In this document: piece after piece, positions 11,408 to 43,545 of the stretch
Position numbering within the stretch: the first letter of the stretch is position 1
Layout of the letters: every line of letters starts with the position of its first letter
NCBI GenBank assembly: GCA_025463965.1
Contig: JAODBN010000361.1
Location: 1-45,239 of the forward strand
From: Acidimicrobiaceae bacterium
GTDB lineage: Bacteria > Actinomycetota > Acidimicrobiia > Acidimicrobiales > Bog-793
Reading direction: 5' to 3'
Length of the DNA: 45,239 nt
Notes under the pieces: model-generated
What the model was told of the DNA's origin: nothing
Database searches by the model: none
The model's input: the letters and a program-made list of their open reading frames with translations, nothing else
Translations under genes and position numbers: made by a program

Positions 11408-11446
11408 CGCCCCCCAAGTAGGTAGTAGTTCGTATTGCAGATCCTA

Positions 11447-11463: not shown

Positions 11464-11485
11464 CAACTTTTCTCGCCCGCGTGGG

Positions 11486-11956: not shown

Positions 11957-12014
11957 AGATGTGGAACATCGGGATCAGGTGGCACTTCACCGAAGAGGGT
12001 CGTCACCCCTACGC

Positions 12015-15771: not shown

Positions 15772-15779
15772 CCGGAGAA

Positions 15780-15816
15780 GCTGCCCGCTAGGCGGTAACG
15801 GCTTGTCAAGGGCAGC
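15780..15816 (+). other. Intercistronic stem-loop after the SBP gene (GCTGCCC ... GGGCAGC)
   Basis: 7-bp perfect arms at 15780-15786 and 15810-15816 in the 62-nt gap between the SBP and permease genes. Such hairpins often stabilise the SBP message. No U-tract follows. Confidence 0.3.
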
Positions 15817-15833
15817 GATGATGAAGTGAGCAC

Positions 15834-22073: not shown

Positions 22074-22120
22074 TGCTCGCCTCATTGGAGGCAGCGCCTC
22101 GAAGACAAGGAGACAAGACC

Positions 22121-22927: not shown

Positions 22928-23667
22928 AGATCAACGACCACCTCTATCTTGTTGGCGGCGGCGACTATGGGTTCAACCTGTCGGGCCGGCTCGACTGCAA
23001 CAGCTACGTCCTGGACACGGGCGAAGGACTGTGGATGATCGATGCGGGCTTCGACGGCGGCGAGCAGGTCGTGAAGAACATCCGCGCCGAAGGTCTCGAG
23101 CCGCGCGCGATCACGCGGTTGTTCATCACGCACTACCACGCTGACCACGCGGGGGCTCTTTCCTACATGCGCAAGGCACTCTCGCCTGAGCTCCAGATCG
23201 CGATCTCCCGCGAGGTCGCCGAGCAAGTACGCGCCGGGGACGAGGAGGACAACGGCCTACGGTGGGCGAAGAGCTTCGGCTTCTACCCCTCGGAGTTTGC
23301 CCTTGAGCCTTGCGAGGTCGATGTCGAGCTGACCCACGGCCAGCGCTTTCAGGCAGGGCGTTTCACGCTTGAGGCGATTGACACCCCCGGGCACTGCCGG
23401 GGGCACATCTGCTTCCACCTGACCGGGGGCTCGGGCGGCTACTTGTTCAGCGGGGACCACGTCTTCTGGGGCGGCAAGATCATCCTTCAGAACGTGGGCG
23501 ACTCGAGCGTGCAGGAGTACGCGGCGTCGATGAACGCGCTCCTCGACTACGACTACGCAGCGCTTATGCCCGGCCACCTCGCCTTCTCTATGGTAAACGG
23601 CAAGCGACACGTCGAGCTGGCCGCTAACCAGTTCAACAAGATCGGCCTGCCTGCGAATCTGCTTTGA
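22924..23667 (+). CDS. MBL-fold metallo-hydrolase
   Basis: HxHxDH motif THYHADHAG, then DTPGHCRGH and a later His (PGH). ATGA overlap. Confidence 0.8.
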   Translation: MKINDHLYLVGGGDYGFNLSGRLDCNSYVLDTGEGLWMIDAGFDGGEQVVKNIRAEGLEPRAITRLFITHYHADHAGALSYMRKALSPELQIAISREVAEQVRAGDEEDNGLRWAKSFGFYPSEFALEPCEVDVELTHGQRFQAGRFTLEAIDTPGHCRGHICFHLTGGSGGYLFSGDHVFWGGKIILQNVGDSSVQEYAASMNALLDYDYAALMPGHLAFSMVNGKRHVELAANQFNKIGLPANLL

Positions 23668-24944: not shown

Positions 24945-25063
24945 GCCCAGAAGGCGTGATCACTTCGAGCTCAAGGCTCTCGCCAGTTCCGGCGCCCAAT
25001 CCCTACGACCTATCGCCATGTTGGCCAACTTGGACTTTGGCTGCCGGGGCTCCGAGAGGTGAG

Positions 25064-25921
25064 ATGCCTGCCGTTCCGCTGATGGACATCCTGAAGAAGG
25101 CGTTCGATGAACACTACGGGGTGGCTGCGTTCAACGTCGTGAATGACCTCACCATGGAGGCTGTGCTTGCTGCGGCGCAGGTCTCGCGGGCGCCGGTCAT
25201 TGTCCAAACGTCGGTGAAGACGGTCCGTTCGATTGGCAGCGGCGTTTTGTTCTCGATGTGGGAAGAGATGTCGAAAGCCGTCGATGTTCCGGTAAGTCTG
25301 CACCTCGACCACTGTCCCGACCGTGCGGTGATCACCGAGTGCCTGCAAAAGGGGTGGAACTCGGTTCTTTTTGATGGCTCGCAGCTATCGGTGGTCGAAA
25401 ACCTCCGCCAGACAACCGAGGTGGTCCACGAGGCTCGCCGGTACGGCGCCCACGTCGAAGGTGAAATAGAGGCGATCACCGGCGTGGAGGATGGCGTTGG
25501 TTCTGACGAGGACGCCGCGCAGCAGTCCCTCGAAGTGGTACTGAACTTCGTTCGCTGCAGTGGCATCGATGTCTTCGCACCGGCGATCGGTAACGCTCAC
25601 GGCGTCTACCGGAGCGAACCGGCTCTCGATATGCAGCGCGTCTCGGACGTCGTCTCGGCGACGTCGATCCCCATCGCGCTTCACGGCGGAACTGGCATGG
25701 CGGAGGCACAATTCCGAGGTCTGATTGAGCGAGGTTGCGCCAAGATCAACATTTCGACAGCGCTGAAAATCAACTTCATGCAGTCGAGCCTTGCGCATCT
25801 GGAGAAGGCTCGTTTCGAGGGCAAGTGGGACCCTCCGTCCTTCTTCCGTGACGTCCGCTCAAGCGTGATGGAAATGGCGGCGCACCATATTCAGCTCTTT
25901 GGCAGTGCTGGAAAAGCGTGA
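25064..25921 (+). CDS. Class II ketose-bisphosphate aldolase (FbaA/GatY/KbaY family)
   Basis: The start was set at ATG 25064 (GAGAGGTGAG upstream). GVAAFNVVN, VIVQTS, SLHLDHC, ALHGGTGM and KINISTAL. Confidence 0.85.
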   Translation: MPAVPLMDILKKAFDEHYGVAAFNVVNDLTMEAVLAAAQVSRAPVIVQTSVKTVRSIGSGVLFSMWEEMSKAVDVPVSLHLDHCPDRAVITECLQKGWNSVLFDGSQLSVVENLRQTTEVVHEARRYGAHVEGEIEAITGVEDGVGSDEDAAQQSLEVVLNFVRCSGIDVFAPAIGNAHGVYRSEPALDMQRVSDVVSATSIPIALHGGTGMAEAQFRGLIERGCAKINISTALKINFMQSSLAHLEKARFEGKWDPPSFFRDVRSSVMEMAAHHIQLFGSAGKA

Positions 25922-26733
25922 GGACTTTGATCTTCGACTGTGACGGTGTTCTCTCCGACACCGAGCGCGACGGTCACCGCCGCGCCTTCAATCAGGCGTT
26001 TGCGGAGTTCGGGCTGCCGGTGTGCTGGAGTGAGGCAGAGTACGCGGAGAAACTTTCGATCGGCGGTGGAAAGGAGCGGATGGCGACTCTGCTCACCCCC
26101 GAACTCGTCGCGGCGATGGGTCTACCGAGAGACCCCGAAGCTCAGTCGAGCGTGCTGCAGACATGGCATCGGCGAAAGTCGGAGATCTACCGCGAGCTTG
26201 TTGCGCGCGGGGGCCTCCCACCCCGCCCTGGTGTCGCCCGCGTTGCCCGCGAAGCACTCGATGCAGGCTGGCAACTGGCTGTTGCTTCCACGTCCGCGGA
26301 GGAGTCCGTTCGGGCGATCCTCGAGCACGCGATCGGCGTGCGCGATGCGGGGCGCTTCTCAGCGGTACTCGCTGGGGACATTGTCGAGCGGAAGAAACCT
26401 GCGCCTGACATCTATGAATTGGTTGTCGGGCGCCTCGGAGCGGATCGGCAGACAACTGTCGTCGTTGAAGACTCACGCAACGGCCTGCTCGCGGCAGTTG
26501 GAGCTGGGTTGCCGTGCGTCATCACTGTCAGCAACTACACGCGGGACGAATCGTTCAAAGAGGCAGCTTTCGTGGTGAGCTCTCTCGGTGATCCCGGGGG
26601 GGAGGCGACGCACGTATACGAGAACCGAAGCCAGGCCTCTCCTGTTGGCTGGGTGACCTTGCGCGATCTGGAAATGTGCATGCTCGGAATGACGGACGGC
26701 GCTCACTCTGCCGGTGCGCAGGGGGACGGATGA
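25918..26733 (+). CDS. HAD-IA family hydrolase (CbbY-like phosphatase)
   Basis: Motif I LIFDCDGVLSDTE, motif II VASTS, motif III ERKKPAPDIY, motif IV VVVEDSRNG. GTGA overlap. Confidence 0.85.
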   Translation: MRTLIFDCDGVLSDTERDGHRRAFNQAFAEFGLPVCWSEAEYAEKLSIGGGKERMATLLTPELVAAMGLPRDPEAQSSVLQTWHRRKSEIYRELVARGGLPPRPGVARVAREALDAGWQLAVASTSAEESVRAILEHAIGVRDAGRFSAVLAGDIVERKKPAPDIYELVVGRLGADRQTTVVVEDSRNGLLAAVGAGLPCVITVSNYTRDESFKEAAFVVSSLGDPGGEATHVYENRSQASPVGWVTLRDLEMCMLGMTDGAHSAGAQGDG

Positions 26734-27395
26734 CGGCAACGCTCGGCGACGTCGCATTTGTCATTGGTTCGATGGCCCGCACCGCTGTCGACAACGAGGG
26801 CTTGTTCGGAGAGCTTGACGCGGTCGTTGGCGACGGCGACTTCGGCTACTCCATGGCTCGTGGCTTCGAGGCCGTCCTCGCTGGCTGGTCAGAGCTCGAC
26901 CGCGCGAGCATCGGTGGGTTCTTGAAGGGGGTCGCAACGACGGTGATGGGACGGATGGGCGGGACCTCTGGACCGATCTGGGGTACGGCGTTGCTGCGTG
27001 CCGGAACCGTCGCCGGCAACGAGTCGGAGCTGGAATGTGCGGAGGTGCTTGCCATGCTGTGGGCCGCAATCGAGGGAATCAGGCAACGCGGGAAGTCCGA
27101 TGTCGGGGACAAGACTCTTCTCGACGCTCTCGTTCCGGCGGTCAATGCGCTCGAGGGCGAGCTACTCAATGGTGGCGCTGCAGCCGATGCCCTAAGCAGA
27201 GCCGCGGTCGTCGCGTCCGAGGCCGCGGAGGCGACCCGCCCTATGGTGGCGAAGCGCGGGCGCGCCTCGTACGCCGGCGACCGGAGCGTCGGAACGCTCG
27301 ATCCGGGAGCGGCTGCCGTGGCCCGGATGTTCCAGGACATCGCGGCGAGCTGGTCAGAGCATGTGGGACGGAGCGATTCGGAGGCGCACACATGA
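26730..27395 (+). CDS. dhaL: Dihydroxyacetone kinase, ADP-binding subunit DhaL
   Basis: The start was set at ATG 26730 (ATGA overlap). DAVVGDGDFGYSM (GDGDHG-type motif with Phe for His), GGTSGPIW, GDKTLLDAL and RGRASY. Confidence 0.85.
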   Translation: MTATLGDVAFVIGSMARTAVDNEGLFGELDAVVGDGDFGYSMARGFEAVLAGWSELDRASIGGFLKGVATTVMGRMGGTSGPIWGTALLRAGTVAGNESELECAEVLAMLWAAIEGIRQRGKSDVGDKTLLDALVPAVNALEGELLNGGAAADALSRAAVVASEAAEATRPMVAKRGRASYAGDRSVGTLDPGAAAVARMFQDIAASWSEHVGRSDSEAHT

Positions 27396-28387
27396 AGAAG
27401 CTCATTAACGACCCGCAGGACTTTGTAGCGGAGATGCTAAAGGGAACCGCGCTCGCGAACCCGGGCTCCCTCCGGTACGTGCCGGAATTCAACCTCATCA
27501 TGCGCGTTGATGCTCCGCGTGAGGACAAGGTGTCGGTCATTCAAGGATCCGGATCTGGGCACGAGCCTGCGCACGTGATGTTCGTCGGGCGAGGGATGCT
27601 CGACGGCGCCTGCCCGGGCGACGTGTTCTCTGCTCCGCCGGTCGACTACGTCGTCGGAACGACCAAGATGCTGAACTCGCCGATGGGCGTGCTTTATCTC
27701 GTGAACAACTACACGGGCGATGGCATGGCGTTCGAGATGGCAGCGGAGATTGTCGAGGCCGAGGGCATCCGCGTAGCCACCGTCGTTATCGACGACGACG
27801 TGGCCGTGAAGGACTCGACCTATACGATCGGCCGTCGTGGCGTGGCAGGAAACTTCTTCGTCATCAAGGCTGTCGGGGCGGCGGCGGAACTCAGCGCGAG
27901 TCTCGACGATCTCGTTTTGCTCGGCAACCGGGTGAACTCTGTGACGCGAACGATGGGCATGGCACTTACCTCCTGCACGCCGCCCGCGAAAGGAAGCCCG
28001 CTCTTCGAGCTTGGCCAGAGTGAGATGGAGATGGGAGTCGGTATCCACGGCGAGCCGGGGCGGAGTCGGGAGCCGCTAGGGAGCGCAAACGAGATCATCG
28101 ATGCGCTGGTCGAAGCCGTTGTCGCAGATTTACCCTATCGGCGCGGCGATCAGGTCGCGCTGATGATCAACGGCCTCGGCGCCACCCCGGTCAGTGAGCT
28201 CTACCTCGCATATGGCCGGGCGCACGAGCAACTTGTGGCCCGGGGGATCGACGTCGCGCGTAGTTATGTCGGGGAGTACTGCACATCCCTCGACATGGCG
28301 GGGTGCTCGGTCACTCTCGTGCGACTGGATGACGGCCTCGTCGACTATCTGGCAGCACCCGCGGACGTCGCGGTTCGAATCTTCTAG
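27392..28387 (+). CDS. dhaK: Dihydroxyacetone kinase, substrate-binding subunit DhaK
   Basis: The start was set at ATG 27392 (ATGA overlap); the track's extension from 27035 overlaps dhaL. MKKLINDPQDFVAEMLKG, GSGSGHEPAH, NYTGD and EMGVGIHGEPG. Confidence 0.9.
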   Translation: MKKLINDPQDFVAEMLKGTALANPGSLRYVPEFNLIMRVDAPREDKVSVIQGSGSGHEPAHVMFVGRGMLDGACPGDVFSAPPVDYVVGTTKMLNSPMGVLYLVNNYTGDGMAFEMAAEIVEAEGIRVATVVIDDDVAVKDSTYTIGRRGVAGNFFVIKAVGAAAELSASLDDLVLLGNRVNSVTRTMGMALTSCTPPAKGSPLFELGQSEMEMGVGIHGEPGRSREPLGSANEIIDALVEAVVADLPYRRGDQVALMINGLGATPVSELYLAYGRAHEQLVARGIDVARSYVGEYCTSLDMAGCSVTLVRLDDGLVDYLAAPADVAVRIF

Positions 28388-28488
28388 GACTCGTTGGAGC
28401 ACGCGCGGGTTTGGGAGCAATGGTCATTACGGCGTGCTCGTCGCGGCGAACAGCCGTGCCTGCCGCACGGGAACACAAGGAGGGAACG

Positions 28489-29952
28489 ATGCGCGAGATC
28501 TTCGAGTACCGGTTCACGAAGCTCGACCCCGTTGGCGGGGACCACATCGACCCGCCCGGCGTTGCGATCTACGAGGGGCTCCTCAACAAGGGCCCGAGCG
28601 AACAGCCTCTGCCTGGGCTGGCGGTGGCGTGGTCGCCGAGTGAGGATGGCCTCGTCTGGCGTCTGCGGCTCCGTCCGGAAGCGCGGTTCCACTCGGGCGA
28701 TCCGTGCGACGCGCCGGCGGTCGTCGCCGCGCTCGAACGCTGTCGCTGGGGCGATGGCCGGACTCATCAGCTCTGGTACTGGGACCCGGTCGACACGGTC
28801 CGAGCGCTCGACGAGGGGACGATCGAGATCCGGCTGCACTATCCCTGGCTTCGACTCCCGACGCTGTTGTGGGGAACACACACTGCGATCGCCAATGACC
28901 GGCGTCGGGAAGCACTCGGCGCCCGCTACGGCATCGAGTTGGCAGATGGGACTGGGCCCTATCGTCTCGTTTCCTATGAGCCGGACGAGGTTGTGGGCGA
29001 ACTCGTCCACGGGGCGGGCGAGACGCGGCCGCGCGTCGTCAGCTGGATGTCCGAGAGCGATGACGACGCCCGGTGCGCGGCCCTAGGGCGCGACGACGTC
29101 GATGTTGTCCGAGCGGTGCGGCCGGAGTGGATCCAGCACGAGAGCGCCGAGCGCTGGCGCTACGTCGAGCAGGACGAGATCTCCCAGTTCTACCTAGCGC
29201 TCAGATTCGACGGAGCCTTCGGCTTTGACGACGTCGAGCTGCGGCGCGCCGTCGATGCCTTTGTAGACCGTCCTGCGCTCGTCGCGGCGGCGTTCGGCGG
29301 GCTCGGCAACGGCCGCCGCTCGCCAGTTCCGGTCGGGGACGTCTTCGCCTCGAACTTCGACCCCGCAACGGTACCGCCGCTGTCCATCGCCCAAGCGGAG
29401 GCGGTACTCGACGCCCATGGTCTGGTGCGGGGGCCAGACGGGGTGCGCATGAAGGACGGCGTTCCGCTGCGCCTGCCCTGCGTTACGCAGGACGCCCCGG
29501 CCTTTCGCCGGCTCGTCGGCGAGCTCGGCCGTCAGATCGCCGCGGCCGGCATCGTCCTCGAGTTCGAGTACTACACGCCGTTCGAAGACTTCTACCGGGC
29601 GTGCGCGAAGCGGCCGGCAGCCTTTGTGTCGAAGTGGCTTTGGCAGGACGCTATCGAGGCCGTCATGGGCTTCTCGCGGTCGTCGTGCACCGGAGACGCC
29701 GGGTGCAACTGGCAGGGCTCGATCGTGCCGGCCGTCGACGCCGCCTACGACCGGTTCCTCCAGGCGTCGACGCTTGAAGAGCTCGGCGAGCGGAGCCGCG
29801 AGGTCCAGGAGAGCTTCATGCGCGAACTGCCGTACATCCCACTCTGCTCGCCGGCGGAGACATACGCGATCTCGCCGCGAGTGCACGGGTTCGTCCCGGT
29901 GCCAGGGACGCTCTACCCTCTCTATGACAAGGTCCTGCTCGCCGATGAATGA
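28489..29952 (+). CDS. Family-5 solute-binding-protein homologue lacking any signal peptide (predicted cytoplasmic)
   Basis: ATG 28489 has a strong AAGGAGG RBS. The mature-type SBP_bac_5 core begins at residue about 5 (FTKLDPV...IYEGLLNK...PGLAVAWSPSEDGLVWRLRLRPEARFHSGDP). No hydrophobic or Tat N-terminus is present. The in-frame upstream extension (from 28411) is too short and uncharged to be a signal. Confidence 0.75.
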   Translation: MREIFEYRFTKLDPVGGDHIDPPGVAIYEGLLNKGPSEQPLPGLAVAWSPSEDGLVWRLRLRPEARFHSGDPCDAPAVVAALERCRWGDGRTHQLWYWDPVDTVRALDEGTIEIRLHYPWLRLPTLLWGTHTAIANDRRREALGARYGIELADGTGPYRLVSYEPDEVVGELVHGAGETRPRVVSWMSESDDDARCAALGRDDVDVVRAVRPEWIQHESAERWRYVEQDEISQFYLALRFDGAFGFDDVELRRAVDAFVDRPALVAAAFGGLGNGRRSPVPVGDVFASNFDPATVPPLSIAQAEAVLDAHGLVRGPDGVRMKDGVPLRLPCVTQDAPAFRRLVGELGRQIAAAGIVLEFEYYTPFEDFYRACAKRPAAFVSKWLWQDAIEAVMGFSRSSCTGDAGCNWQGSIVPAVDAAYDRFLQASTLEELGERSREVQESFMRELPYIPLCSPAETYAISPRVHGFVPVPGTLYPLYDKVLLADE

Positions 29953-30256
29953 GCCGACGGTGTATTGCGTCATCCTTTACCGCAAGGACGGTGTCTCCCG
30001 GGAGCAGTTCCTCGAGGCGTGGCTCGGCGAGCACCGCCGTCTCATTGGCGATCTCTCCGGCCTGACGGACGTGCGTCTGCTTCCCGTCGCCGAGCCCGCC
30101 GATGGCGGCCCCGATGGCGTGGGGCTGCTCCGTTTCGCCTCGGCAGCGCAGCTCACCGCCGCGCTCCAGTCCGAGCCCGCGCTCACGCTGCGACGCCACA
30201 CGGCGACTTTCTCCAAGTCGGACGCGGCGGTCCGGCTGCTGTTGACCGAGCCGTGA
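29945..30256 (+). CDS. EthD-domain protein (dimeric alpha/beta-barrel family)
   Basis: 103 aa. VYCVILYRKDGVSREQFLEAWLGEHRRLIGDLSGLTDVRLLPV fits the EthD pattern. The start overlaps the SBP-like stop by 8 nt, and the stop overlaps the next gene's GTG. Confidence 0.65.
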   Translation: MNEPTVYCVILYRKDGVSREQFLEAWLGEHRRLIGDLSGLTDVRLLPVAEPADGGPDGVGLLRFASAAQLTAALQSEPALTLRRHTATFSKSDAAVRLLLTEP

Positions 30257-32487
30257 CGACGCGGGAATTAGGGGCCGGTCCACCGATCGGCTACTTCGAC
30301 CGCTGGACGGCCCGACCTGGCGAGACGATAGAGCTGAAGGTGAGCAGCGAGATTGGCTTCGACGTGTCGATCATCCGCGTCTTACAGGCCGACAACAGCG
30401 CCTTGGCGCCCGGTCGGCGGGAGTACGTCGAGGAGTGGTGGCCAAGCTGTCGGTTTGGGGCGGCGGTGCAGAAGGTGGCGCCGGGCTCGTGCGTTCTCAC
30501 CGACCTGCTTCCGGCTCTGCAGACTGCCGAGAGATATGCGGTGGAGCTGATGTTCCGCCCGGGCGTGTTCGATGGCGGTGAGGCTCAAGTCGTCGCCGCT
30601 CTCCTCGCCGCCGACGGGCGCGCCAGTATGGAGCTCGCGCTCGACGGCGACGGCGGCCCCTACCTCGGGATCGGTTGCGGGCTGCGGCGACGGCGCGTCC
30701 GCGCCGGGCCGGCGACCGTTCTGCAAGTGGGCCGCTGGTACGAGGCGCGCCTCAGTGTCGACCTCGAGACTCGCCTGGCGCAGCTCGTGGTGGAGAGTGT
30801 GCTCGACGCGCCGAGCGGGCGCCAGCTCCTGGATGCAGAACTCGAGCTCGACGAGACCGACGTCGTGGCGCTGCGGGGGGATGCCCGCCCAGAACGCCTA
30901 ATGCTCGGTGCTGGCGGCGACTCCGACGTCGGCGAGCCCGGGGAGAACCCGCCGCGCGTCGGCCACTTTTCAGGGAAAGTAGAGGCGCCGACAGTCTCGG
31001 GGAGCGCTTCCTTGGCCGCGTTCGGCGGAGCGTTCAGCTACTCGTGGCAGCTCGGACCCGAGGTGCACAACGCGGCGGTCCTCGACGACCGGGGACAGGG
31101 CATCGTTGCCCATCTGCTCAATGCGCCGATGTCAGCAGTGACAGGTCACGCCTACGACGGGAGCGTCGTCTGTTACGCGCAGGCTCCGGACATGTATCGT
31201 GCCCTGGCACTCCATCGCGACGACCTTGAAGACGCCGGCTGGTCGACGACCGCCACGCTCACCTTGCCCGACGGACTGTCGTCCGGCGTGTATGCGGCCA
31301 AGTTGCAGAGCACGGCGGGATCTCGATACGTGCCCTTCTTCGTCGCCCCGCGGTCGGGCGGCGAGCGCCCGGCGATCGCCGTCGTGCTCCCTACCTTTAC
31401 CTATCTCGCGTACGCGAATGAGCACGTGCGCGAGTCGCTCCCCCACTTTGGGGAGACCCCGCAGCATCCGTCGCCTCAGGACCTCGAGATATCGGTGCAC
31501 CGCGACTTCGGGCTTTCATTGTACGACCACCACGATGACGGCACAGGGGTCTGCTTCTCGTCATGCCGTCGGCCGGTGCTCAACCTCGATCCGACCTACC
31601 GCTTCTGGCTGTTCGACGGACCGGTCCACCTCGGCGAGGACCTCTACCTGCTCGATTGGCTGGAGCGGGAGGGCTACGCCTTCGATGTCCTCACCGACCA
31701 TCTCTTGCACGGGGAGGGACAGCAAGCGCTCGCCGGGTACCGCGTCGTGCTGACGGGGAGTCACCCCGAGTACGTCAGCGAGCAGCTGATCGATGCCTTC
31801 GAAGCCCATGTCGAGGGCGGCGGCCGGCTGATGTACCTCGGTGGCAACGGGTTTTACTGGGTCACTTCCGTCCACCCCGAGCGGCCGCATCTGATCGAGG
31901 TGCGTCGGGGGAACGCCGGTGGCCGCGCCTGGGAGAGTGACCCGGGGGAGACCCACCATGCGACGACCGGGGAGCAAGGGGGCCTCTGGCGCCACCGCGG
32001 CCGGCCACCGAACCGGCTGCTCGGCGTCGGCTTCAGCGCGCAGGGTGCTGACGACGATGCGCCCGGATATCGACGGGTCTCGAGTGAGCCCCGCTGGAGC
32101 TTCGTTTTCGAGGGCCTGACCGACGACCAGGCGATCGGCGAATCGGGACTCCTTCTCGGCGGTGCGGCCGGCAACGAGGTGGATCGCGCCGACCCCCGCT
32201 GCGGCACACCGCCTGAGACGGTCGTGCTCGCGACCTCCACGGGCCATAGCGACGCATACCAGCTCGCCCACGAGGATCTCGCCTTCACCGCGCCGGACCA
32301 GGGTGGTACCAAGCAGCCGCTCGTCCGAGCGGATCTTACGATGACGCCCTACGTATCGGGTGGGTGCGTCTTTTCAGTGGGGGCGATCACCTGGCTCGGA
32401 GCGCTCGCCGCGTCCTCCTATGACAACGACGTCGCCCGGCTGACGGCGAACGTTCTCCGGCGCTTTCTCTCGCCCGCGCCTCTCTAA
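30253..32487 (+). CDS. N,N-dimethylformamidase beta (large) subunit-like protein, paralogue 1
   Basis: The start was set at GTG 30253 (GTGA overlap); the track's extension from 29965 overlaps the EthD gene. Blocks recalled from DmfA2-type proteins: IGYFDRWTARPGETIELKVS, PTFTYLAYANE, LTGSHPEY, GGRLMYLGGNGFYWV, HPERPHLIEVRR, LVRADLTM, ITWLGAL, NDVARLTANVLRRFL. Confidence 0.75.
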   Translation: MTTRELGAGPPIGYFDRWTARPGETIELKVSSEIGFDVSIIRVLQADNSALAPGRREYVEEWWPSCRFGAAVQKVAPGSCVLTDLLPALQTAERYAVELMFRPGVFDGGEAQVVAALLAADGRASMELALDGDGGPYLGIGCGLRRRRVRAGPATVLQVGRWYEARLSVDLETRLAQLVVESVLDAPSGRQLLDAELELDETDVVALRGDARPERLMLGAGGDSDVGEPGENPPRVGHFSGKVEAPTVSGSASLAAFGGAFSYSWQLGPEVHNAAVLDDRGQGIVAHLLNAPMSAVTGHAYDGSVVCYAQAPDMYRALALHRDDLEDAGWSTTATLTLPDGLSSGVYAAKLQSTAGSRYVPFFVAPRSGGERPAIAVVLPTFTYLAYANEHVRESLPHFGETPQHPSPQDLEISVHRDFGLSLYDHHDDGTGVCFSSCRRPVLNLDPTYRFWLFDGPVHLGEDLYLLDWLEREGYAFDVLTDHLLHGEGQQALAGYRVVLTGSHPEYVSEQLIDAFEAHVEGGGRLMYLGGNGFYWVTSVHPERPHLIEVRRGNAGGRAWESDPGETHHATTGEQGGLWRHRGRPPNRLLGVGFSAQGADDDAPGYRRVSSEPRWSFVFEGLTDDQAIGESGLLLGGAAGNEVDRADPRCGTPPETVVLATSTGHSDAYQLAHEDLAFTAPDQGGTKQPLVRADLTMTPYVSGGCVFSVGAITWLGALAASSYDNDVARLTANVLRRFLSPAPL

Positions 32488-34592
32488 GCGAGCATACGCT
32501 GGAGGACGTTCGTGCAGACTCGGGCGAGGTCGTTCTTCCCGTCCTCCACTGGGAGACATCCGCTCGCCGTGACCGACCCGAGGCTGAATACAATGCCGCC
32601 GGCCGGGGTGTGCCGGATCGTCATGTCAGCTCGCGTCTCGACGTCGGGGGCGCGCCCGGGCCCGCTCTCGAAGGTCCGAAAGAAAAAGCCTCCCGTCGGC
32701 ATCGCGCTCGCGAGCACAGTTGTTCCGACCGGCGCAAGGTCGGGGGTATAACGGTCGAATTCGAAGGCGACGGCGCCGCCCATGTTGAGTCCACATTCGC
32801 CGATTACGGCAGACGTGACGCCGTCAAACACCCACGCGAAGTCAGGGCCATACGAGGCGTCGGTGCGTTGGTAGCCGATGCCGGTATCCCAGCCGAAGCC
32901 CGCGAACCCGACCGAGACGATGGAGTCTGGCGGCCGCCCGCTCTGGGCCCACGTGCCGCCCCATTGCGGCTCGAAGACGTGAGCTACCTCGTCGCGCTCC
33001 GCGCTCCACGTCTGCGATCCACGCCAGCGCCGGACTTCCATGAGGTGTGGGCGCTCGTGATCGATGGAGGTCACCCAGTACAGGCCGTTGCCACCAAGAT
33101 AGATCAGGCTTCCTCCTGCATCGAGGTGGTGCTCGACGGCGTCGAGCATGGCGGCAGTCCAGTACTCGGGGTGCGCCGACAGCACGAGGACGCGTGCGCC
33201 CCTCAGTGCGCGGGCACCGTTCTCGTGAAGTACCCCGTCGGTGACGACGCCAAAGTCGATTCCACTCCGGTCGAGCCAGTAGTTGGCGTAGAGATCGGCC
33301 ATCAAAAGGTGCGTGGCCGTAGCCTCATCGCCCGGCGCTCCGGTCCCGGTGAAGGCGTCGACACTGTCGACCTCCAGGCGCGCGCCCGGCTCTAGGGTCG
33401 GCGAGGGCTTCAGCCGCGTCGTGACGTACACCGGAGAGCCATCGTTATGGAGCGCGTAGTGCGAGAGGCCGGGGTAGCGGTCCGCTTCCCGACCGAGGTT
33501 CGCGTACGCCTGCCAGGTGAATGTGGGCGCGAGCAGAAGAACAAGTGGGTTGACCTCTGGGGTCACGATGAAGGGGAGCTCGGCATCGCCATCGCTGCCA
33601 GAGACGTGCAGGCTGTAAAAGCCAGATCGCGCCGACTCCGGGACTGCGATCCGGTGGGTCCGCGGCCAGCGGCAGCTCTCGAGGTCGTCGCGATGCAGGT
33701 GCACGGTTGCGTAGGGCGCTGCCGTCATCGGGGGCTCGGTTGTGCCGTCGAGCGGCAATGGCCCCGACACGCCGAGTGCGGGCGCGTTAATGAGCGTGCC
33801 GTGGTGATTATTTGCCGACTGGTCCACGACTTTCCAGAGACTGTCGGCGCTCCCGAAGAGCCAGCTCCCGAGGATCGCGCGGCGCCTGCTCGTCCCCTCT
33901 ATGCCCCAGTTCATGAGCTCCATGAGACCAATCGCGTCAGGGATCTCAGCGAGGAGGAACGGAGCGTGGAGCTTGCCGTCAAACTGGCCGCGCGCCCATC
34001 CCTCGGACTCGGTGTGCCCGCCGAGCACGAGGGTCCCGTCCGATGTCGGCGGCGGCAGCGGCGCGATCGTGCGGACGAGCTCGTAGGGACCACCTGTGCG
34101 GCCGAGCTGTCCCCAGGCGAGCTTGACCAGTCCTGCCGACGCGTCGAGGCCGAGCCCCAGAAAGGCCCACTGGCGTTCGTACAGCTCGCGTGGGGACTCG
34201 AGAATCGTTTCCTCGCCGAGAACAAATCCAGGTCGCCCATTGCGGATCGCGAGCCGCGCCGCGCCGGACTTCGTCATCCAGGAGGCAACCACCGACGTCT
34301 CACGGAGCACAGTTGGCCAGATCCACGTCGCGAAGGTGAGCGGTCGGCCGTCCGTTGTGAGGGCGCCAGGAATTATCGCGCACGAGCCGGCTACAACAGT
34401 CTGTTCCTCGACGGGCTGCAGCTGCTCGAGGGGCCAGGAAGTCTCCTCAAATAGAGCACCGGGACCAAGATTTGGATCCGCGTGGACGAGACGGCGGACG
34501 TGCACATGCGGAGCGGCGTCTTGACCCGAAACGCGGGCGGCGAGGCTCGTCCCTGGCAGGACTTCGAAAGCATCAAGGTAGCCCCGCGCCAC
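32484..34592 (-). CDS. N,N-dimethylformamidase beta (large) subunit-like protein, paralogue 2
   Basis: 702 aa with a GTG start and no RBS (see the promoter feature). It has the same block order as paralogue 1: RGYLDAFEVLPGTSL, APTFTWQAYAN, LSAHPEYWT, GGSLIYLGGNGLYWV, HERPHLMEVRR, TRADMTI, NDLARVCTNVLQRML. Its stop codon overlaps that of paralogue 1. Confidence 0.75.
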   Translation of the reverse strand: MARGYLDAFEVLPGTSLAARVSGQDAAPHVHVRRLVHADPNLGPGALFEETSWPLEQLQPVEEQTVVAGSCAIIPGALTTDGRPLTFATWIWPTVLRETSVVASWMTKSGAARLAIRNGRPGFVLGEETILESPRELYERQWAFLGLGLDASAGLVKLAWGQLGRTGGPYELVRTIAPLPPPTSDGTLVLGGHTESEGWARGQFDGKLHAPFLLAEIPDAIGLMELMNWGIEGTSRRRAILGSWLFGSADSLWKVVDQSANNHHGTLINAPALGVSGPLPLDGTTEPPMTAAPYATVHLHRDDLESCRWPRTHRIAVPESARSGFYSLHVSGSDGDAELPFIVTPEVNPLVLLLAPTFTWQAYANLGREADRYPGLSHYALHNDGSPVYVTTRLKPSPTLEPGARLEVDSVDAFTGTGAPGDEATATHLLMADLYANYWLDRSGIDFGVVTDGVLHENGARALRGARVLVLSAHPEYWTAAMLDAVEHHLDAGGSLIYLGGNGLYWVTSIDHERPHLMEVRRWRGSQTWSAERDEVAHVFEPQWGGTWAQSGRPPDSIVSVGFAGFGWDTGIGYQRTDASYGPDFAWVFDGVTSAVIGECGLNMGGAVAFEFDRYTPDLAPVGTTVLASAMPTGGFFFRTFESGPGRAPDVETRADMTIRHTPAGGIVFSLGSVTASGCLPVEDGKNDLARVCTNVLQRMLA

Positions 34593-34598
34593 AGGGCC

Positions 34599-34634
34599 AC
34601 AGTAACATGGGCTTTCCGTTGGACAAGCGCTTGA
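34599..34634 (-). promoter_or_regulatory. Candidate leaderless promoter of DMFase-like paralogue 2, overlapped by the third LacI-type palindrome (divergent lacI side)
   Basis: The minus strand reads CAAGCGCTTGTCC - 16 nt - TACTGT - 6 nt - GTG. The -35-like TTGTCC is at 34626-34621 and the -10-like TACTGT at 34604-34599. The palindrome core is at 34624-34633 (ACAAGCGCTTGA at 34623-34634). The GTG start at 34592 lies where transcription would begin. Confidence 0.55.
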
Positions 34635-34677
34635 TCATCGGCCTTCGAGGCCCCAATTCAGGAAGACGGTTCTCGCA

Positions 34678-35748
34678 GTGCTCGATCATGTCGTCGCGAA
34701 CGCCAAGCGGCCTTCGGCCCGTGTCGGACAGGGGAGTTCTCTCCTCGCCGTCGCGGGCGAGGCGCGGGTTCACCCGTCGACGGTGTCGCGGATCCTGCGA
34801 GACGATCCGGCCGTTCGCGTCCGCCCCGCCACGCGCCAGCGTGTCATTGCAGCGGCCGCTGCACTCGGCTATGTCCCGAATGCAAACGCCCGCGGATTGG
34901 CGCTCCGCCGGACGACGACGCTCGGCTTGATCATCCCAAGCACTGCGAACATCGTCTACGAACAGATCATCAAGGGCGCGGAGTCAGCGGCACGGGCGGC
35001 CGGATACGTTCTCGTACTTGCTGAGTCAGCCGACGTAGGGCAGGTTGACTCCGCCCACCGTGAGCTGATTCTCGGCGGGCGCGTCGACGGGCTGCTCATC
35101 GCGAGCGGAACGTTGCGAGAGTCGCTGCCTCGAGCAGTCTTGAATGGCGTGAATAACACGATCATCTTGAACCGTCGGATCCGCGGCTCGGTTCCCAGCA
35201 TCATTGAGGACGACGAGCGGGGGATGGCCCGCGGCGTCGAGCATCTCGTCGCTCTTGGGCACACTCGTATCGCCTGCCTTGCCGGTCCAGAGGAGGTGGA
35301 CACGGCGACCCGCCGTTTGTCCGGCTTCAAGGAGGCGTTGCGAGCCGCCGGTTTACCCGTCTCCCGTGGCTACATCCAGCGAGCAAGTTTCGATGAGGCA
35401 GGCGGCTACGAAGCCATGCTTCGTCTGCTTCAACTGGAACGCCGACCGACCGCGGTCGCGGCGAGCAGTATCGTGGCGGCGATCGGTGCCCTTGCAGCCT
35501 GTCACGCGACTGGGGTTTCAGTTCCCGGTGAACTCTCGATGATCGCGTTTCACGATGCCACGATCGCTCAGTACCTCACACCGTCGCTGTCCACCATCTG
35601 GATGCCGCTCTTTGAGCTCGGCGAGATGGCGACACGACAACTGCTTGAAGTGATCGACGGGCGAGACATCCCTTCCGTTCAGCGTCTACAGGATCCTGAG
35701 CCGCGCGTCATCCCCCGCGCCTCTACGGCCCCTCCGCCCGCTGATTAA
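34678..35748 (+). CDS. LacI/GalR-family transcriptional regulator
   Basis: N-terminal HTH LLAVAGEARVHPSTVSRILRDD followed by a periplasmic-binding-protein-like sugar-binding domain (GLIIPS..., DGLLIAS, VALGHTRIACLAGP, PGELSMIAFHD). It is divergent from paralogue 2 across an 85-nt region that carries the palindrome. Confidence 0.9.
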   Translation: MLDHVVANAKRPSARVGQGSSLLAVAGEARVHPSTVSRILRDDPAVRVRPATRQRVIAAAAALGYVPNANARGLALRRTTTLGLIIPSTANIVYEQIIKGAESAARAAGYVLVLAESADVGQVDSAHRELILGGRVDGLLIASGTLRESLPRAVLNGVNNTIILNRRIRGSVPSIIEDDERGMARGVEHLVALGHTRIACLAGPEEVDTATRRLSGFKEALRAAGLPVSRGYIQRASFDEAGGYEAMLRLLQLERRPTAVAASSIVAAIGALAACHATGVSVPGELSMIAFHDATIAQYLTPSLSTIWMPLFELGEMATRQLLEVIDGRDIPSVQRLQDPEPRVIPRASTAPPPAD

Positions 35749-36044: not shown

Positions 36045-36926
36045 TCACTTCAAGGAGTTAGTGATGTGCTCGAAGGTTCTCAGGTTCGGGCCGGACTTGA
36101 CGGGATCGGAGGGCCGAGGCCAATGCACGACGACATCGGTCATGCCGACACCCTCCAGGTGACCCACGAAGTCGTCCCAGGCGTCGGGCGATGCTTGGGC
36201 CCAGGGCAGGTCTAGCGGCACCAGCATTGTTCGGCTGAGCTCTTCGGGACGCCGGCCAGCCGCCGCGAGAGCCTCTCCCAACTGCCCGACCTGATCGCTC
36301 ACCGTGGCGAACCAGTCGTTCGGTGCCAGGTCCCTGGCATTGCCGTAACGGCCGTACGTGACCCAGCCGCCGCCTAGTCGGGCCGCAATGGCCATTGCCC
36401 GCGGGCCAGCGGCGGCGATCGCGAAGGGCACACGAGGGGATTGGACACAGCCGGGGATCTGGCGAGCGTCGTTTGCCGAGTACCACCTCCCGCTCGAGGT
36501 GGTCGCCGGCTGGGTGAGCAATCGATCCAGCAGTTCGCAGAACTCCTCGAAACGCGAGGTCCGCTCTCCCTGGCCCCATGGCGGTTTACCGAGCACGCGT
36601 GCGTCCTCGGAGTCGGCGCCCGCCCCGATGCCGAGGGTGAGGCGCCCACCGCTGAGGTCATCGAGGGTCATGACCTCTTTTGCCAGGGGCACTGGATGAC
36701 GAAAGTTCGGGCTGGTGACGAGCGTTCCCAGTCGGATGGTGGACGTGGAGGTAGCGGCTGCCGCTAACAGGGGCACCGCCCCATACCAGGGGCCATCTCG
36801 GAGCGTGGTCCACGACAAGTGGTCGTAGGTCCAAGCGGTGCCAAAGCCGGCGCGTTCAGCCTCCTGCCAGCGGTGCCGGTCCTGGGCCCACGGCAGCTCG
36901 GGGAGAAGACAGACGCCGACGCGCAA
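36045..36926 (-). CDS. Luciferase-like monooxygenase (LLM) class oxidoreductase, probably F420-dependent
   Basis: MRVGVCLLPELPW...WQEAERAGFGTAWTYDHLSW and LTLGIGAG are typical of actinobacterial LLM/F420 oxidoreductases. The cofactor assignment is an inference. Confidence 0.75.
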   Translation of the reverse strand: MRVGVCLLPELPWAQDRHRWQEAERAGFGTAWTYDHLSWTTLRDGPWYGAVPLLAAAATSTSTIRLGTLVTSPNFRHPVPLAKEVMTLDDLSGGRLTLGIGAGADSEDARVLGKPPWGQGERTSRFEEFCELLDRLLTQPATTSSGRWYSANDARQIPGCVQSPRVPFAIAAAGPRAMAIAARLGGGWVTYGRYGNARDLAPNDWFATVSDQVGQLGEALAAAGRRPEELSRTMLVPLDLPWAQASPDAWDDFVGHLEGVGMTDVVVHWPRPSDPVKSGPNLRTFEHITNSLK

Positions 36927-37072
36927 CGTCGCTACCTGCCCGCTGGCCGGCGTTGAACGGTGCAGCCTTCGGATCTCGCCGACGACTGAAGAGGCTGGAA
37001 GGCGGGCACGCAGGCGACTCTATCCAAGGCTCGTGCCGGTGACCTGTCCGCACGCGAGAGCGGCGATATGGA

Positions 37073-37128
37073 TGGATTCGAGTCGAAGTGGCTTGCTCCG
37101 CAGAGGGCCGAGCAAGGGACCGAATCCA
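37073..37128 (+). other. Nested inverted repeat (potential stem-loop or operator) in the glcB upstream region
   Basis: Outer arms TGGATTCG (37073-37080) and CGAATCCA (37121-37128). Inner arms CTTGCTC (37092-37098) and GAGCAAG (37110-37116). It ends 72 nt before the glcB ATG. Confidence 0.35.
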
Positions 37129-37199
37129 CATCCTGGAAGTTGTTTGCCGCCAACCGGAAGGCGGCGGTAACGTCCGTTCACCTAGGGCGGGAGAGCGCG

Positions 37200-39374
37200 A
37201 TGGCGATGGTCGAGGCGGAGCAGCTACGCGTCGATGAGGAGCTGCACCGGTTTCTCACGGAGGAGGCGCTTCCGGGGACCGGAGTCGAGCCAGCGGCGTT
37301 CTGGCGAGGCCTGTCAGACCTGGTTCACAGCCGAGCTGACGAGAACCGCCGGCTGCTCGCTCAGCGTGCCCAGTTCCAGTCGCGCATCGACTCGTGGCAC
37401 ATCGAGCACCGGCATCAGGAGCACGACGCAGCCGCCTACCGGAGCTTCCTTGAGGAGATCGGCTACCTACAAGAAGAAGGGCCCGACTTCGAGATCGACA
37501 CGACAGGCGTGGACCCGGAGATCAACGAGATCGCCGGTCCGCAGCTCGTCGTACCGGTGACGAACCCGCGCTACGCGTTGAACGCCGCGAACGCGCGGTG
37601 GGGATCGCTCTACGACGCCCTGTACGGCACCGACGCTGTGGTCGCGCAGCCACCAGCCGGTGGCTCCTACGACCCCGAGCGAGGCGCACGGGTCGTGGCC
37701 TGGGTCCGGGCCTTCCTCGACGACGTCTTGCCCCTCGAACGCGGCTCCCACGCGGATGTCACCTCCTATCGCGCCGTGCATGGTCGCCTGGAAGTTGACA
37801 CCGGGGCCGGCGAGATGAGCGGGCTTCAGGACTCGGGCGCGTTCGCCGGATACCGAGGCTCGCCCGATTCACCGTCTTCGGTGCTGCTCGTCAACCACGG
37901 CCTCCACATTGAGCTCGTGCTGGATCGAACCGGCCCGGTCGGTGCGGCCGACGCCGCCGGCATTGCGGACGTGCTGATCGAGTCCGCGCCGACCACGATC
38001 GTCGACTTTGAGGACTCGGTGGCAGCGGTCGACGCTACGGACAAGGTGGCTGCCTATCGCGTTTGGCTCGGTCTCATGCGTGGTGACCTCGAAGCCACGT
38101 TCCAAAAGGCTGGCGGACCGATGACCCGGCGTCTCGCGGACGATCGAGAGTTCGTGGCGCCAGACGGCTCGCGCCTGGTCCTGCGCGGACGAGCGCTTCT
38201 GCTCGTGCGCAACGTCGGCCACTTCATGACGACCGACGCGGTGCTCGATCGTTCGGGCAGGCCCGTTCCTGAAGGGCTTCTCGACGCGATGGTCACGGTG
38301 CTCATCGCGCTCCACGACATCAACCGTGGCGCCGACAGGCGGAACTCCCGACACGGCTCGGTGTACGTGGTGAAGCCCAAGATGCACGGGCCCGACGAGG
38401 TCGCCTTCGCCGACGGCGTGTTCGCCCAAGTCGAGGAAGCGCTCGGCCTGGCGCAAGGAACGGTGAAGCTCGGGCTGATGGACGAGGAGCGGCGCACGAC
38501 CCTCAACCTGAAGGCGTGCATCGGAGCGGCCAGATCTCGTATCGCCTTCATCAACACGGGCTTCCTCGACCGGACCTGCGACGAGATCGACACCTCGATG
38601 CAAGCAGGTCCGATGGTCCGTAAGGCGGAGATGAAGAGCCAACCGTGGCTCATAGCCTACGAAGACAACAACGTGGACGTCGGCCTTGCGTGTGGGCTTC
38701 GCGGGCGAGCCCAGATCGGCAAGGGCATGTGGGCCGCCCCGGACCTCATGGCGCAGATGCTGCGCGAGAAGATCGGCCAGCCCCTCGCCGGGGCCAATTG
38801 CGCTTGGGTCCCGTCGCCCACCGCGGCGACCTTGCACGCCACGCACTATCACCGCGTCGACGTCGCTGAGCAACAAGAGCAGCTCCTCGGCAAGCGGAGG
38901 GCGTCGATCGCCGACCTCCTGGCGCTGCCTTTGCAGTCCGGGTCCGCGTTGAGCGCAGAAGAGGTCCGAAGCGAGCTGGACAACAACGCCCAAGGCATCT
39001 TGGGCTACGCCGTGCGCTGGGTGGAGCAGGGGATCGGCTGCTCGAAGGTGCCGGACATCCACGACGTCGCGCTGATGGAGGACCGCGCCACCTGCAGGAT
39101 CTCGTCTCAACACATCGCCAACTGGCTGCTCCACGGGATCCTCGACCGAGAGACGGTTTTGGACGCGCTGCGGCGAATGGCGGAGGTGGTCGACGGCCAG
39201 AACGCCGGGGACGCCGCCTACACCGACATGGCCCCGGGATTCGACGGCGTCGCCTTCCGAGCCGCCTGCGAGCTCGTTCTCCTTGGAGCCGAGCAGCCAT
39301 CCGGGTACACCGAGCCGATCCTTCACTCGTCCCGCCTCGAATACAAGCAGGGCGCGGGGACGAGCCCGGTATGA
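37200..39374 (+). CDS. glcB: Malate synthase G
   Basis: The start was set at ATG 37200 (GGGAGAG upstream). VYVVKPKMHGPDEVAF, MDEERRTTLNLKACI, NTGFLDRTCDEIDT and GKGMWAAPD. The length of about 724 aa fits MSG. Confidence 0.9.
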   Translation: MAMVEAEQLRVDEELHRFLTEEALPGTGVEPAAFWRGLSDLVHSRADENRRLLAQRAQFQSRIDSWHIEHRHQEHDAAAYRSFLEEIGYLQEEGPDFEIDTTGVDPEINEIAGPQLVVPVTNPRYALNAANARWGSLYDALYGTDAVVAQPPAGGSYDPERGARVVAWVRAFLDDVLPLERGSHADVTSYRAVHGRLEVDTGAGEMSGLQDSGAFAGYRGSPDSPSSVLLVNHGLHIELVLDRTGPVGAADAAGIADVLIESAPTTIVDFEDSVAAVDATDKVAAYRVWLGLMRGDLEATFQKAGGPMTRRLADDREFVAPDGSRLVLRGRALLLVRNVGHFMTTDAVLDRSGRPVPEGLLDAMVTVLIALHDINRGADRRNSRHGSVYVVKPKMHGPDEVAFADGVFAQVEEALGLAQGTVKLGLMDEERRTTLNLKACIGAARSRIAFINTGFLDRTCDEIDTSMQAGPMVRKAEMKSQPWLIAYEDNNVDVGLACGLRGRAQIGKGMWAAPDLMAQMLREKIGQPLAGANCAWVPSPTAATLHATHYHRVDVAEQQEQLLGKRRASIADLLALPLQSGSALSAEEVRSELDNNAQGILGYAVRWVEQGIGCSKVPDIHDVALMEDRATCRISSQHIANWLLHGILDRETVLDALRRMAEVVDGQNAGDAAYTDMAPGFDGVAFRAACELVLLGAEQPSGYTEPILHSSRLEYKQGAGTSPV

Positions 39375-43388: not shown

Positions 43389-43545
43389 CTCCGTGCACCA
43401 CCCCCGCAATCGCGATGTTCTCCCGCTCGCGGCCTCCCGTTATCGCCGTTCGCCGCCGCGTCCCGATGAGGAGCTGGTCACGGGTAGGGCCCGCAAGGCT
43501 GGCCATCTCCGAACGGCGACGACGACCTCGGCTTGGTCTTCGAAG

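Follow-up and report, generated by a model that had tools for sequence, protein, structure and literature searches.

N,N-dimethylformamidase (DMFase) proper, EC 3.5.1.56, is an alpha2beta2 enzyme that converts N,N-dimethylformamide (DMF) to formate and dimethylamine. DMF is man-made, next to nothing is known of what the large DMFase-like family acts on in nature, and environmental surveys label its members "dimethylformamidase." The window analyzed here was contig JAODBN010000361.1 of an Acidimicrobiaceae assembly (GCA_025463965.1; 45,239 nucleotides; 61–70% G+C). At positions 28489–34592 it contained four adjacent genes, encoding a signal-less homologue of family 5 solute-binding proteins (SBPs; hereafter cytSBP), a small EthD-fold protein, and two DMFase-family proteins (DMF1 and DMF2). 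These genes probably form the distal part of a LacI-repressed catabolic regulon of roughly 21.7 kb (about 14030–35750) serving an imported, amide-bearing organic solute. The locus places two family members that are catalytically intact, as judged by their residues, in a repressor-controlled, importer-linked regulon of uncultured Acidimicrobiia and their relatives.

The closest described system is the DMFase of Paracoccus sp. DMF (6LVB), the source of the domain limits used here for the large subunit (PMC7686228). Its Fe(III) is held by two tyrosines and one glutamate (Y399, Y440, and E521), and H519, N547, and E657 are essential or catalytic residues (PMC7686228). F693, contributed by the neighboring large subunit, lines the pocket as a size gate for small amides; the small subunit, made of four helices and two strands, is part of the substrate entrance, and the large subunit is inactive without it (PMC7686228). 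Two other members of the family bear on the locus: the two-subunit acetamiprid amidase AceAB of Pigmentiphaga sp. D-2, which does not hydrolyze DMF, and N-acetyl-(R)-beta-phenylalanine acylase (8HUY/8I59/8I5A), a single protein entity. An earlier note on this DNA had called the DMFase homologues functionally unassigned, a statement that holds for many of them but not for the acylase and AceAB, which are now characterized.

The four genes and the adjoining regulatory gene were as follows:

28489–29952, plus strand: cytSBP, a signal-less, predicted cytoplasmic SBP_bac_5 homologue of 487 amino acids (aa; Pfam SBP_bac_5, 3e-38), with the ribosome-binding site AAGGAGG
29945–30256, plus strand: EthD/4-methylmuconolactone-methylisomerase-fold protein of the dimeric alpha+beta barrel type, 103 aa, assigned from homologues, an AlphaFold2 (AF2) model, and Foldseek
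30253–32487, plus strand: DMF1, a predicted DMFase-large-subunit-like Fe amidohydrolase of 744 aa (PF20254, 6e-91; 6lvb_A, 2e-116)
32484–34592, minus strand: DMF2, a second predicted DMFase-family amidohydrolase of 702 aa, closest to N-acetyl-(R)-beta-phenylalanine acylase (PF20254, 8e-68)
34678–35748, plus strand: LacI-family repressor gene (Pfam LacI and Peripla_BP_1/3)

All four genes were present where the earlier note had placed them, and the translational coupling it had claimed for the first three was confirmed. The cytSBP ATG lay 2 nt past AAGGAGGGA, the cytSBP stop and the EthD gene start overlapped by 8 nt (ATGAATGA), and the EthD gene and DMF1 overlapped by 4 nt (GTGA). DMF2 was convergent, as claimed, and its stop codon shared 2 nt with that of DMF1 (cTAa, 32484–32487), so the two transcripts must run into each other. 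This junction left no space for terminators; orthologous loci showed a 4-nt overlap or a 2-nt gap. Scans of 28000–35000 for sigma-70 and terminator consensus sequences gave background-level results, which are uninformative either way at 65–69% G+C.

DMF1 and DMF2 scored 306 and 230 bits against PF20254 (DMFA2_C; cut-off 27 bits), and NCBIfam contained no model for either protein. DMF1 aligned end to end with the Paracoccus large subunit in one alignment (6lvb_A, 2e-116, residues 13–743 versus 8–758) and matched the acylase at 5e-99 (8huy_A). The ranking was reversed for DMF2, which aligned end to end with the acylase (8huy_A, 1e-70, residues 3–699 versus 11–745) and was much more distant than DMF1 from the Paracoccus enzyme (2e-53). 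With 33% identity between them, DMF1 and DMF2 are, by their alignments, paralogues from two different clades. The full-length alignments of both proteins spanned the three-domain architecture (Ig-like, pentraxin/LamG-like, and catalytic); Pfam Laminin_G_3 was not detected in DMF1 or DMF2 themselves.

The DMF1 residues Y387, Y424, H504, E506, N532, and E642 corresponded to Y399, Y440, H519, E521, N547, and E657 of DMFase. All six positions were kept in DMF2 and in 29/29 aligned DMFase-family sequences, i.e., DMF1, DMF2, and 27 others (23 DMF1 and DMF2 orthologues linked to the cluster, plus four distant homologues with unrelated gene neighborhoods). The earlier placement of both large proteins in the DMFase-beta-like family was upheld over their full length, and the Tyr/Tyr/Glu metal ligands, whose loss from both paralogues would have counted against it, were kept in both together with the counterparts of His519, Asn547, and Glu657. 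As far as residue conservation shows, DMF1 and DMF2 are full-length, predicted cytoplasmic members of the DMFase-large-subunit/N-acyl-beta-amino-acid acylase family with a complete mononuclear-iron catalytic set. In the chemistry proposed for them, an Fe(III)-bound water would be used, with Glu serving as the base and Asn acting as the oxyanion holder, and DMF1 and DMF2 would each hydrolyze a different C–N (amide) bond, either in the imported compound or in its breakdown products.

The residue at the F693 gate position was F678 in the window DMF1 and either Phe or Leu in the DMF1 clade, with Leu in most orthologues; the DMF1 gate appears DMFase-like and hydrophobic. In the DMF2 clade this position fell inside a shorter loop, and given that loop the DMF2 pocket is probably roomier. 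No canonical DMFase small-subunit gene was found in 28489–34592, where the coding space was fully occupied, and the gene upstream of DMF1 encoded an EthD fold, so the small alpha subunit (about 15 kDa) of a DMFase was missing. Upstream of DMF2 there was only the 85-bp promoter region and thus no small-subunit gene.

These features bear on whether DMF1 and/or DMF2 could be a genuine N,N-dimethylformamidase, or an amidase for small formamides or xenobiotics, with neighbors unrelated to that role. Among solved structures DMF1 matches the Paracoccus large subunit best, its gate residue is the Phe associated with small amides, and its public annotation is N,N-dimethylformamidase beta subunit. This explanation is nevertheless very improbable. 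The 6.1-kb stretch encoded no small subunit, the gate position is Leu in most DMF1 orthologues, and genes for methylamine or dimethylamine utilization were absent from the window. AceAB, for all its high similarity to DMFase, lacks activity on DMF, and similarity is therefore no guide to substrate. In addition, overlapping start and stop codons tie DMF1 into a conserved operon with an importer of the peptide/opine type and a repressor of the sugar type. The Paracoccus enzyme resembles DMF1 in its three full-length domains, six catalytic residues, and F693 gate; it differs in needing a small alpha subunit, for which the window has no gene, and in its C1/methylamine context as opposed to a LacI regulon with a Dpp-type importer. 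The acylase resembles DMF2 as its best solved match, in the aligned Tyr/Tyr/His/Glu/Asn/Glu set, and in being a single protein entity, whereas sequence identity is low, the pocket loops differ, and beta-amino acids are not indicated here. AceAB, which was compared without its sequence, offers the DMFase-family scaffold as a general amide C–N hydrolase, but it has alpha and beta subunits and no alpha subunit is encoded here.

The regulatory evidence came from a repeated palindrome. Three exact copies of the 10-mer CAAGCGCTTG were found in the window (14033, 24910, and 34624), against 0.02 expected by chance. The corresponding operators, to which no strand was assigned, were:

14032–14043: operator O1, ACAAGCGCTTGT, roughly 50 bp ahead of the gene for the importer SBP; in the same place in L003, L023, and L088
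24909–24920: operator O2, core CAAGCGCTTG, within the final codons of the amidohydrolase gene and immediately preceding the aldolase block
34623–34634: operator O3, ACAAGCGCTTGA, in the 85-bp DMF2/lacI region, about 31 bp upstream of the DMF2 start

Here and below, locus names L001–L088 denote related metagenomic and genomic stretches compared with the window. The repressor had the features of the LacI family, namely a helix-turn-helix and an effector domain resembling periplasmic binding proteins, with a CG-centered palindrome at its predicted target promoters, and lacI was 65–81% identical in orthologous loci. DMF2 and lacI diverged from their shared 85-bp region, which gave DMF2, alone among the four genes, its own operator-bearing promoter. 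No palindrome or operator copy was found in the 101-bp gap before cytSBP, so cytSBP, the EthD gene, and DMF1 come under control as the closing genes of a long operon. The earlier statement that all four genes lie under the putative LacI operator was right insofar as one LacI-type regulon takes in both these genes and the importer, but there are three operator copies, and only DMF2 and lacI are directly under one.

Related loci were searched for the same palindrome with at most 2 substitutions. It was found 27–44 bp upstream of the DMF2 orthologues in L001–L005, L017, L020, L021, L064, L072, L077, L078, and L086, 234 bp upstream of the DMF2 orthologue in L066/L067, and ahead of a P450/aldolase block in L004 and L020. 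Upstream of DMF2 it recurred in almost all of the related loci. By this distribution of predicted operators, the importer, DMF2, lacI, and the aldolase/P450 block are one LacI-type regulon. A LacI-type repressor would act on ACAAGCGCTTGT at the three promoters of the window, and repression would be relieved there. No hit in the window came from Rfam or tRNA scans, and no riboswitch therefore gives a clue to the ligand. A perfect ACAAGCGCTTGT also stood beside the importer SBP gene in L011 (6014) and L024 (5533), where cytSBP adjoined genes for a short-chain dehydrogenase/reductase (SDR) and a metallo-beta-lactamase (MBL)-fold hydrolase; a GntR regulator was called in L011, and no LacI gene was found in the L011 and L024 stretches.

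The long, 19-gene operon (14092–32487, plus strand) contained the importer genes, ten enzyme genes, and then cytSBP, the EthD gene, and DMF1, with nearly all junctions being overlaps or short gaps. Ahead of cytSBP it was comprised of the following:

14092–19460, plus strand: Dpp/Opp-type ABC importer, comprising a Tat-signal SBP_bac_5 protein (14092–15771), two permeases, and two ATPases (Pfam; NCBIfam NikA/Opp5A/GsiB-like)
19457–24944, plus strand: conserved enzyme core, in an order shared by L001–L005, L014, L021, and L033, made up of the next six genes
19457–20119, plus strand: alpha/beta-fold protein without a Ser nucleophile, 220 aa (distant homologues)
20116–21078, plus strand: thiamine pyrophosphate (TPP)-dependent E1 alpha (profile matches)
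21075–22073, plus strand: E1 beta (profile matches)
22121–22927, plus strand: SDR resembling sugar 1-dehydrogenases and butanediol dehydrogenase (BudC-like; profile matches)
22924–23667, plus strand: MBL-fold hydrolase (profile matches)
23664–24944, plus strand: amidohydrolase of the Cc2672/ochratoxinase type (solved relatives)
25064–28387, plus strand: lineage-specific inserted block with class II ketose-bisphosphate aldolase, HAD phosphatase, DhaL, and DhaK (profile matches)

The upstream Dpp-type importer of the earlier note was real, although ten enzyme genes separate it from the four genes. The proposal that the DMFase-like genes form a C–N bond-cleaving unit for the importer substrate is reasonable, but the operon also encodes the amidohydrolase, the MBL hydrolase, and the alpha/beta-fold protein, and the pair would not be alone in cleaving amides or esters. 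The nearest solved relatives of the amidohydrolase were the "Xaa-Pro dipeptidase" 2qs8, the amide hydrolase LlADH, the Arg carboxypeptidase Cc2672, and ochratoxinase.

A metagenome scan with the cytSBP alignment yielded 79 loci, which were compared by tblastn with the window proteins; an earlier scan of genome contigs with DMF1 had returned two loci only, its patterns being too specific. Co-occurrence was counted in the 20 loci whose cytSBP gene was flanked on each side by 3 kb or more. Of these loci, an SDR was found in 20/20, an MBL protein in 18/20, the EthD gene in 9/20, and any DMFase-like gene in 8/20.

In the loci nearest to the window, those with a cytSBP identity of 57% or more, all four genes occurred together and in an unchanged order whenever the contig was long enough. 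This order was kept in L001–L005, L017, L020, and L021, and likewise in L082, where cytSBP was cut at the contig edge. Orthologous clusters, with DMF1 at 56–69% identity, kept the complete importer-to-lacI order, and whole-cluster synteny was seen in L001–L005, L014, L017, L020, and L021. Complete clusters of lower identity (L013/L033, L036, and L073) contained cytSBP, the EthD gene, and lacI without any DMFase-like gene. The co-occurrence of the four genes suggested earlier was thus found in every close relative long enough and broke down in these DMFase-free clusters. The idea of a self-contained four-gene module did not stand: cytSBP and the EthD protein appear to belong with the upstream SDR/MBL/amidohydrolase core, and cytSBP accompanied SDR and MBL genes far more consistently than DMFase-like ones.

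Other arrangements were more distant. The type C loci (L053, L064, L072, L077, L078, and L086) contained a single DMF2-clade gene under the operator; their EthD gene followed the amidohydrolase gene, and their cytSBP gene followed a P450 gene on the other strand. GntR-type clusters, from an Actinomycetales metagenome-assembled genome and Devosia, combined cytSBP with an SDR, an MBL protein, an M20 peptidase, and an aminotransferase. DMF1 homologues at 39–44% identity were found in unrelated settings: beside a Dpp importer and an alanine-racemase-like gene, in a Streptomyces aminocyclitol-type cluster, and in an isolated position. We propose that the DMF1/DMF2 pair would be an evolutionary add-on to an older, widespread core of Dpp-type importer, SDR, MBL hydrolase, and cytSBP, whose variable extras would be the EthD-fold protein, an amidohydrolase or M20 peptidase, TPP E1 alpha/beta, and a P450.

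A cytochrome P450 of about 390 aa was encoded in 15 related loci and not in the window. Its position varied: it separated cytSBP from the EthD gene, immediately preceded cytSBP under the LacI-type operator, or came after lacI:

L018:5093–6244 and L083:730–1899: P450, between cytSBP and the EthD gene in both
L078:5573–6763, and also L004, L017, L020, L047, L053, L055, L064, L072, L077, L079, L080, and L086: P450

Pairing of EthD with a P450 is known from the eth cluster. Several related loci resembled that cluster in having the EthD gene directly after the P450 gene, although the window itself has no P450.

The conserved gene order admits another explanation, in which the four proteins are one multi-subunit amidase, with cytSBP and/or the EthD protein replacing the small subunit, stabilizing DMF1, and shaping the entrance, and with DMF1 and DMF2 perhaps forming a heterodimer. 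The 8-nt and 4-nt overlaps were conserved in L001–L004, and this conserved translational coupling keeps the four-protein complex alive as an explanation; DMF1 and DMF2 also abutted in every type-A locus long enough for both. The Paracoccus enzyme gives a precedent, as its large subunit is inactive alone, its small subunit contributes to the substrate entrance, and F693 of the neighboring large subunit lines the pocket (PMC7686228). Clusters that are alike in all else (L013/L033, L036, and L073) keep cytSBP and EthD yet lack any DMFase-like gene, which weakens the complex. Moreover, most loci have cytSBP without EthD or DMFase genes, type C loci place EthD and cytSBP apart and on different strands, the EthD barrel half is unlike the four-helix/two-strand small subunit, and the PDB lists N-acetyl-(R)-beta-phenylalanine acylase as a single entity. 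We consider a four-protein amidase unlikely. In the regulon we favor, cytSBP would be an intracellular ligand-binding, ligand-presenting, or catalytic partner in the core, and the EthD protein a small alpha+beta-barrel enzyme or helper of the core, neither being an amidase subunit.

Several points weigh against this preferred regulon. The co-occurrence counts were obtained by searching short metagenomic contigs with the window proteins themselves by tblastn, and the SDR and MBL hits could include paralogues. Tight coupling of cytSBP, EthD, and DMF1 was kept in nearly all of the closest clade, as expected for subunits of a complex; the exceptions to cytSBP-EthD adjacency were L018 and L083, with a P450 between the two. 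Since the Paracoccus large subunit is inactive alone, a single-chain DMF1 may require a partner. The iron in DMF1 and DMF2 is deduced from ligand conservation, and the catabolic assignment from gene content and regulation.

The EthD assignment, made in the earlier note, fell short for the window copy itself, which scored 20 bits against Pfam EthD (PF07110; threshold 22 bits) and 19 bits against TIGR02118 (threshold 30.5 bits). It held for the family, with 16/16 homologues matching PF07110 at E <= 0.01 (best 9e-8), and the modeled fold fitted. The AF2 model (pLDDT 95.3) had a ferredoxin-like beta-alpha-beta-beta-alpha-alpha-beta topology, and Foldseek matched it with probability 1.00 and TM-scores of 0.76–0.81 to 3hfk, 3hds, and 2ftr, the best structural matches being 4-methylmuconolactone methylisomerase (MLMI; 3hfk, 0.81) and EthD BH0200. 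Identity to MLMI was only 19–21%, and the comparison with it was one of fold. No sequence match to 6lvb or other DMFase chains in the PDB was found with the single sequence or the family profile. A homologue of the DMFase small subunit was ruled out on this ground, by the different fold, and by the presence of the EthD gene where DMFase genes are absent.

The cytSBP homologue set contained 120 sequences from several phyla, with 43–100% identity and lengths mostly of 475–506 aa. All 120 began at a conserved FEYxFTxLDP motif, and an N-terminal hydrophobic segment was found in none of them nor in the window copy, where at most 26 codons are possible upstream of the ATG and these are not hydrophobic or signal-like. 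Mean column identity was 55%, with 62 invariant columns including H19, D21, H68, C73, D74, and H131, which indicates purifying selection. The AF2 model (pLDDT 91.8) showed a complete two-lobe SBP5 fold whose nearest structures were AapF, GsiB/YliB, NikZ/NikA, and AgaA, with TM-scores of 0.82–0.84 to liganded DppA, AapF, and AgaA. Across the cluster-C (family 5) SBPs GsiB/YliB, NikA/NikZ, AapF, and AgaA, TM-scores were 0.72–0.84 and profile E-values reached 9e-49. Unlike these proteins, cytSBP had no export signal (Sec, Tat, or lipobox), with a signal peptide in 0/120 members, and was linked to SDR, MBL, and P450 genes instead of permease genes. The secreted SBP5 heading the operon carried a Tat-like signal (TRREALKRAGVLGLGAATLG) and was 25% identical to cytSBP.

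It could be supposed that cytSBP is a mis-called or decayed transporter part, such as a second periplasmic SBP or a pseudogene, with no cytoplasmic role. Its full SBP_bac_5 fold, nearest structures that are all periplasmic binding proteins, and a secreted paralogue at the head of the same operon would suit that explanation. It is scarcely credible given that all 120 homologues start at the same motif without a signal peptide, that the family is under purifying selection, that a strong ribosome-binding site stands right before the ATG, and that cytSBP was always among enzyme genes and never beside permease genes. Judged by these features, cytSBP is a member of a widespread, uncharacterized, predicted cytoplasmic family, which spans Actinobacteria and Alphaproteobacteria and which annotation pipelines mislabel as an extracellular transport protein. 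A literature search on cytoplasmic SBP homologues returned nothing useful.

A more specific role, which we advance tentatively as the less probable side of the question, is that cytSBP is no transport protein but a component that presents substrates or is itself catalytic, an SBP fold recruited to cytoplasmic metabolism, where it would act together with SDR, MBL, EthD, and, in other lineages, P450 proteins in a widespread pathway not yet described, and that in this lineage it hands its ligand to a DMF1/DMF2 pair that lacks a small subunit and is possibly a heterodimer. If true, this would give the DMFase family a natural role and define a new functional class of SBP-fold proteins.

Hints to the substrate came from the sugar-type repressor, the GsiB/NikA/AgaA/AapF-group SBPs, the N-acyl-amino-acid-type amidohydrolase, an acetoin-system-like trio of SDR, E1, and alpha/beta-fold protein, and the operator-linked DhaKL-aldolase block. 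Conjecturally, they suggest a conjugate that is polar and contains both amide bonds and a hydroxylated carbon chain. Opine- or Amadori-like sugar-amino acid conjugates, N-acyl amino acids, and HEHEAA-like ethanolamine amides were considered as conjectured substrates from the SBP neighbors AgaA, GsiB, and AapF, the ochratoxinase/Cc2672-type amidohydrolase, and the DhaKL/aldolase block, and were not adopted.

The folds and families of all four proteins and amide hydrolysis by the DMFase family are established. Three things had not been described before: the whole regulon, the joint occurrence of two single-chain paralogues of the DMFase family under a LacI operator, and a signal-less SBP5 family that is widespread and linked to SDR, MBL, and P450 genes; there is as yet no evidence for new chemistry at the locus. 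A defined operator, a repressor, and two binding proteins provide a handle for fishing out the natural ligand, which makes the natural role of a DMFase-like protein experimentally approachable.

Among the neighboring genes, the 220-aa alpha/beta-fold protein had no Pfam match. Its family was small (73 representatives at E <= 1e-3), the distant representatives were alpha/beta hydrolases, and the nucleophile position was an invariant Gly, not Ser. The best named match was the alpha/beta part of AcoC (acetoin-dehydrogenase E2), a weak one (E 1e-3 to 9e-10). The E1 alpha/beta pair, the BudC-like SDR, and the AcoC-like protein recall the acetoin/2,3-butanediol system (AcoA, AcoB, AcoC, and BudC), but the operon has no lipoyl domain and no E3, and Gly replaces the Ser nucleophile; the resemblance concerns the neighbor genes and not the four-gene stretch.

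The second importer ATPase (18687–19460) was 257 aa long with a truncated oligo_HPY C-terminal region. The short form (253–258 aa) was kept in orthologous loci, except L004, where it was called as two pieces; this conservation shows that it is not a frameshift.

The aldolase-HAD-DhaLK block was found elsewhere only in L004, downstream of lacI, and was missing from most relatives, which argues that it is an insertion in the window. In relatives cytSBP directly follows the amidohydrolase gene, and the 101-bp gap between dhaK and cytSBP is therefore the right edge of the insertion. The inserted segment (24909–28488) carries its own operator copy, located inside the amidohydrolase gene at the 3' end of that gene, and accounts for the 101-bp gap. 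In L004 a single 686-aa open reading frame (15695–17755) joined a P450 (residues about 1–345, the C-terminal part apparently missing) to a class II aldolase, and could be a real fusion or an assembly or frameshift artefact.

L023/L088 and L066/L067 were two metagenome contigs (Ga0194050_1000091 and Ga0194055_10000098) with the same arrangement. That organism had two cytSBP paralogues in one cluster: a 52%-identical copy beside the SDR upstream of lacI, and a second (41%) at the operon end, before a DMF2-clade gene with its own operator.

Outside the regulon, no operator copy was found near the genes at 10–2659, which encoded hydantoinase/oxoprolinase A (cut at the contig edge) and B subunits, or near those at 9028–13490, which encoded a split UxaA/galactarate-dehydratase-like pair (minus strand) and an FAD aromatic-ring hydroxylase. 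Downstream of lacI came a luciferase-like monooxygenase gene (36045–36926, minus strand), followed at 37068–44328 by genes for malate synthase G, for a glycolate oxidase of the GlcD/GlcE/GlcF type, and for an IclR regulator. None of these was found next to the cluster in the orthologous loci examined.

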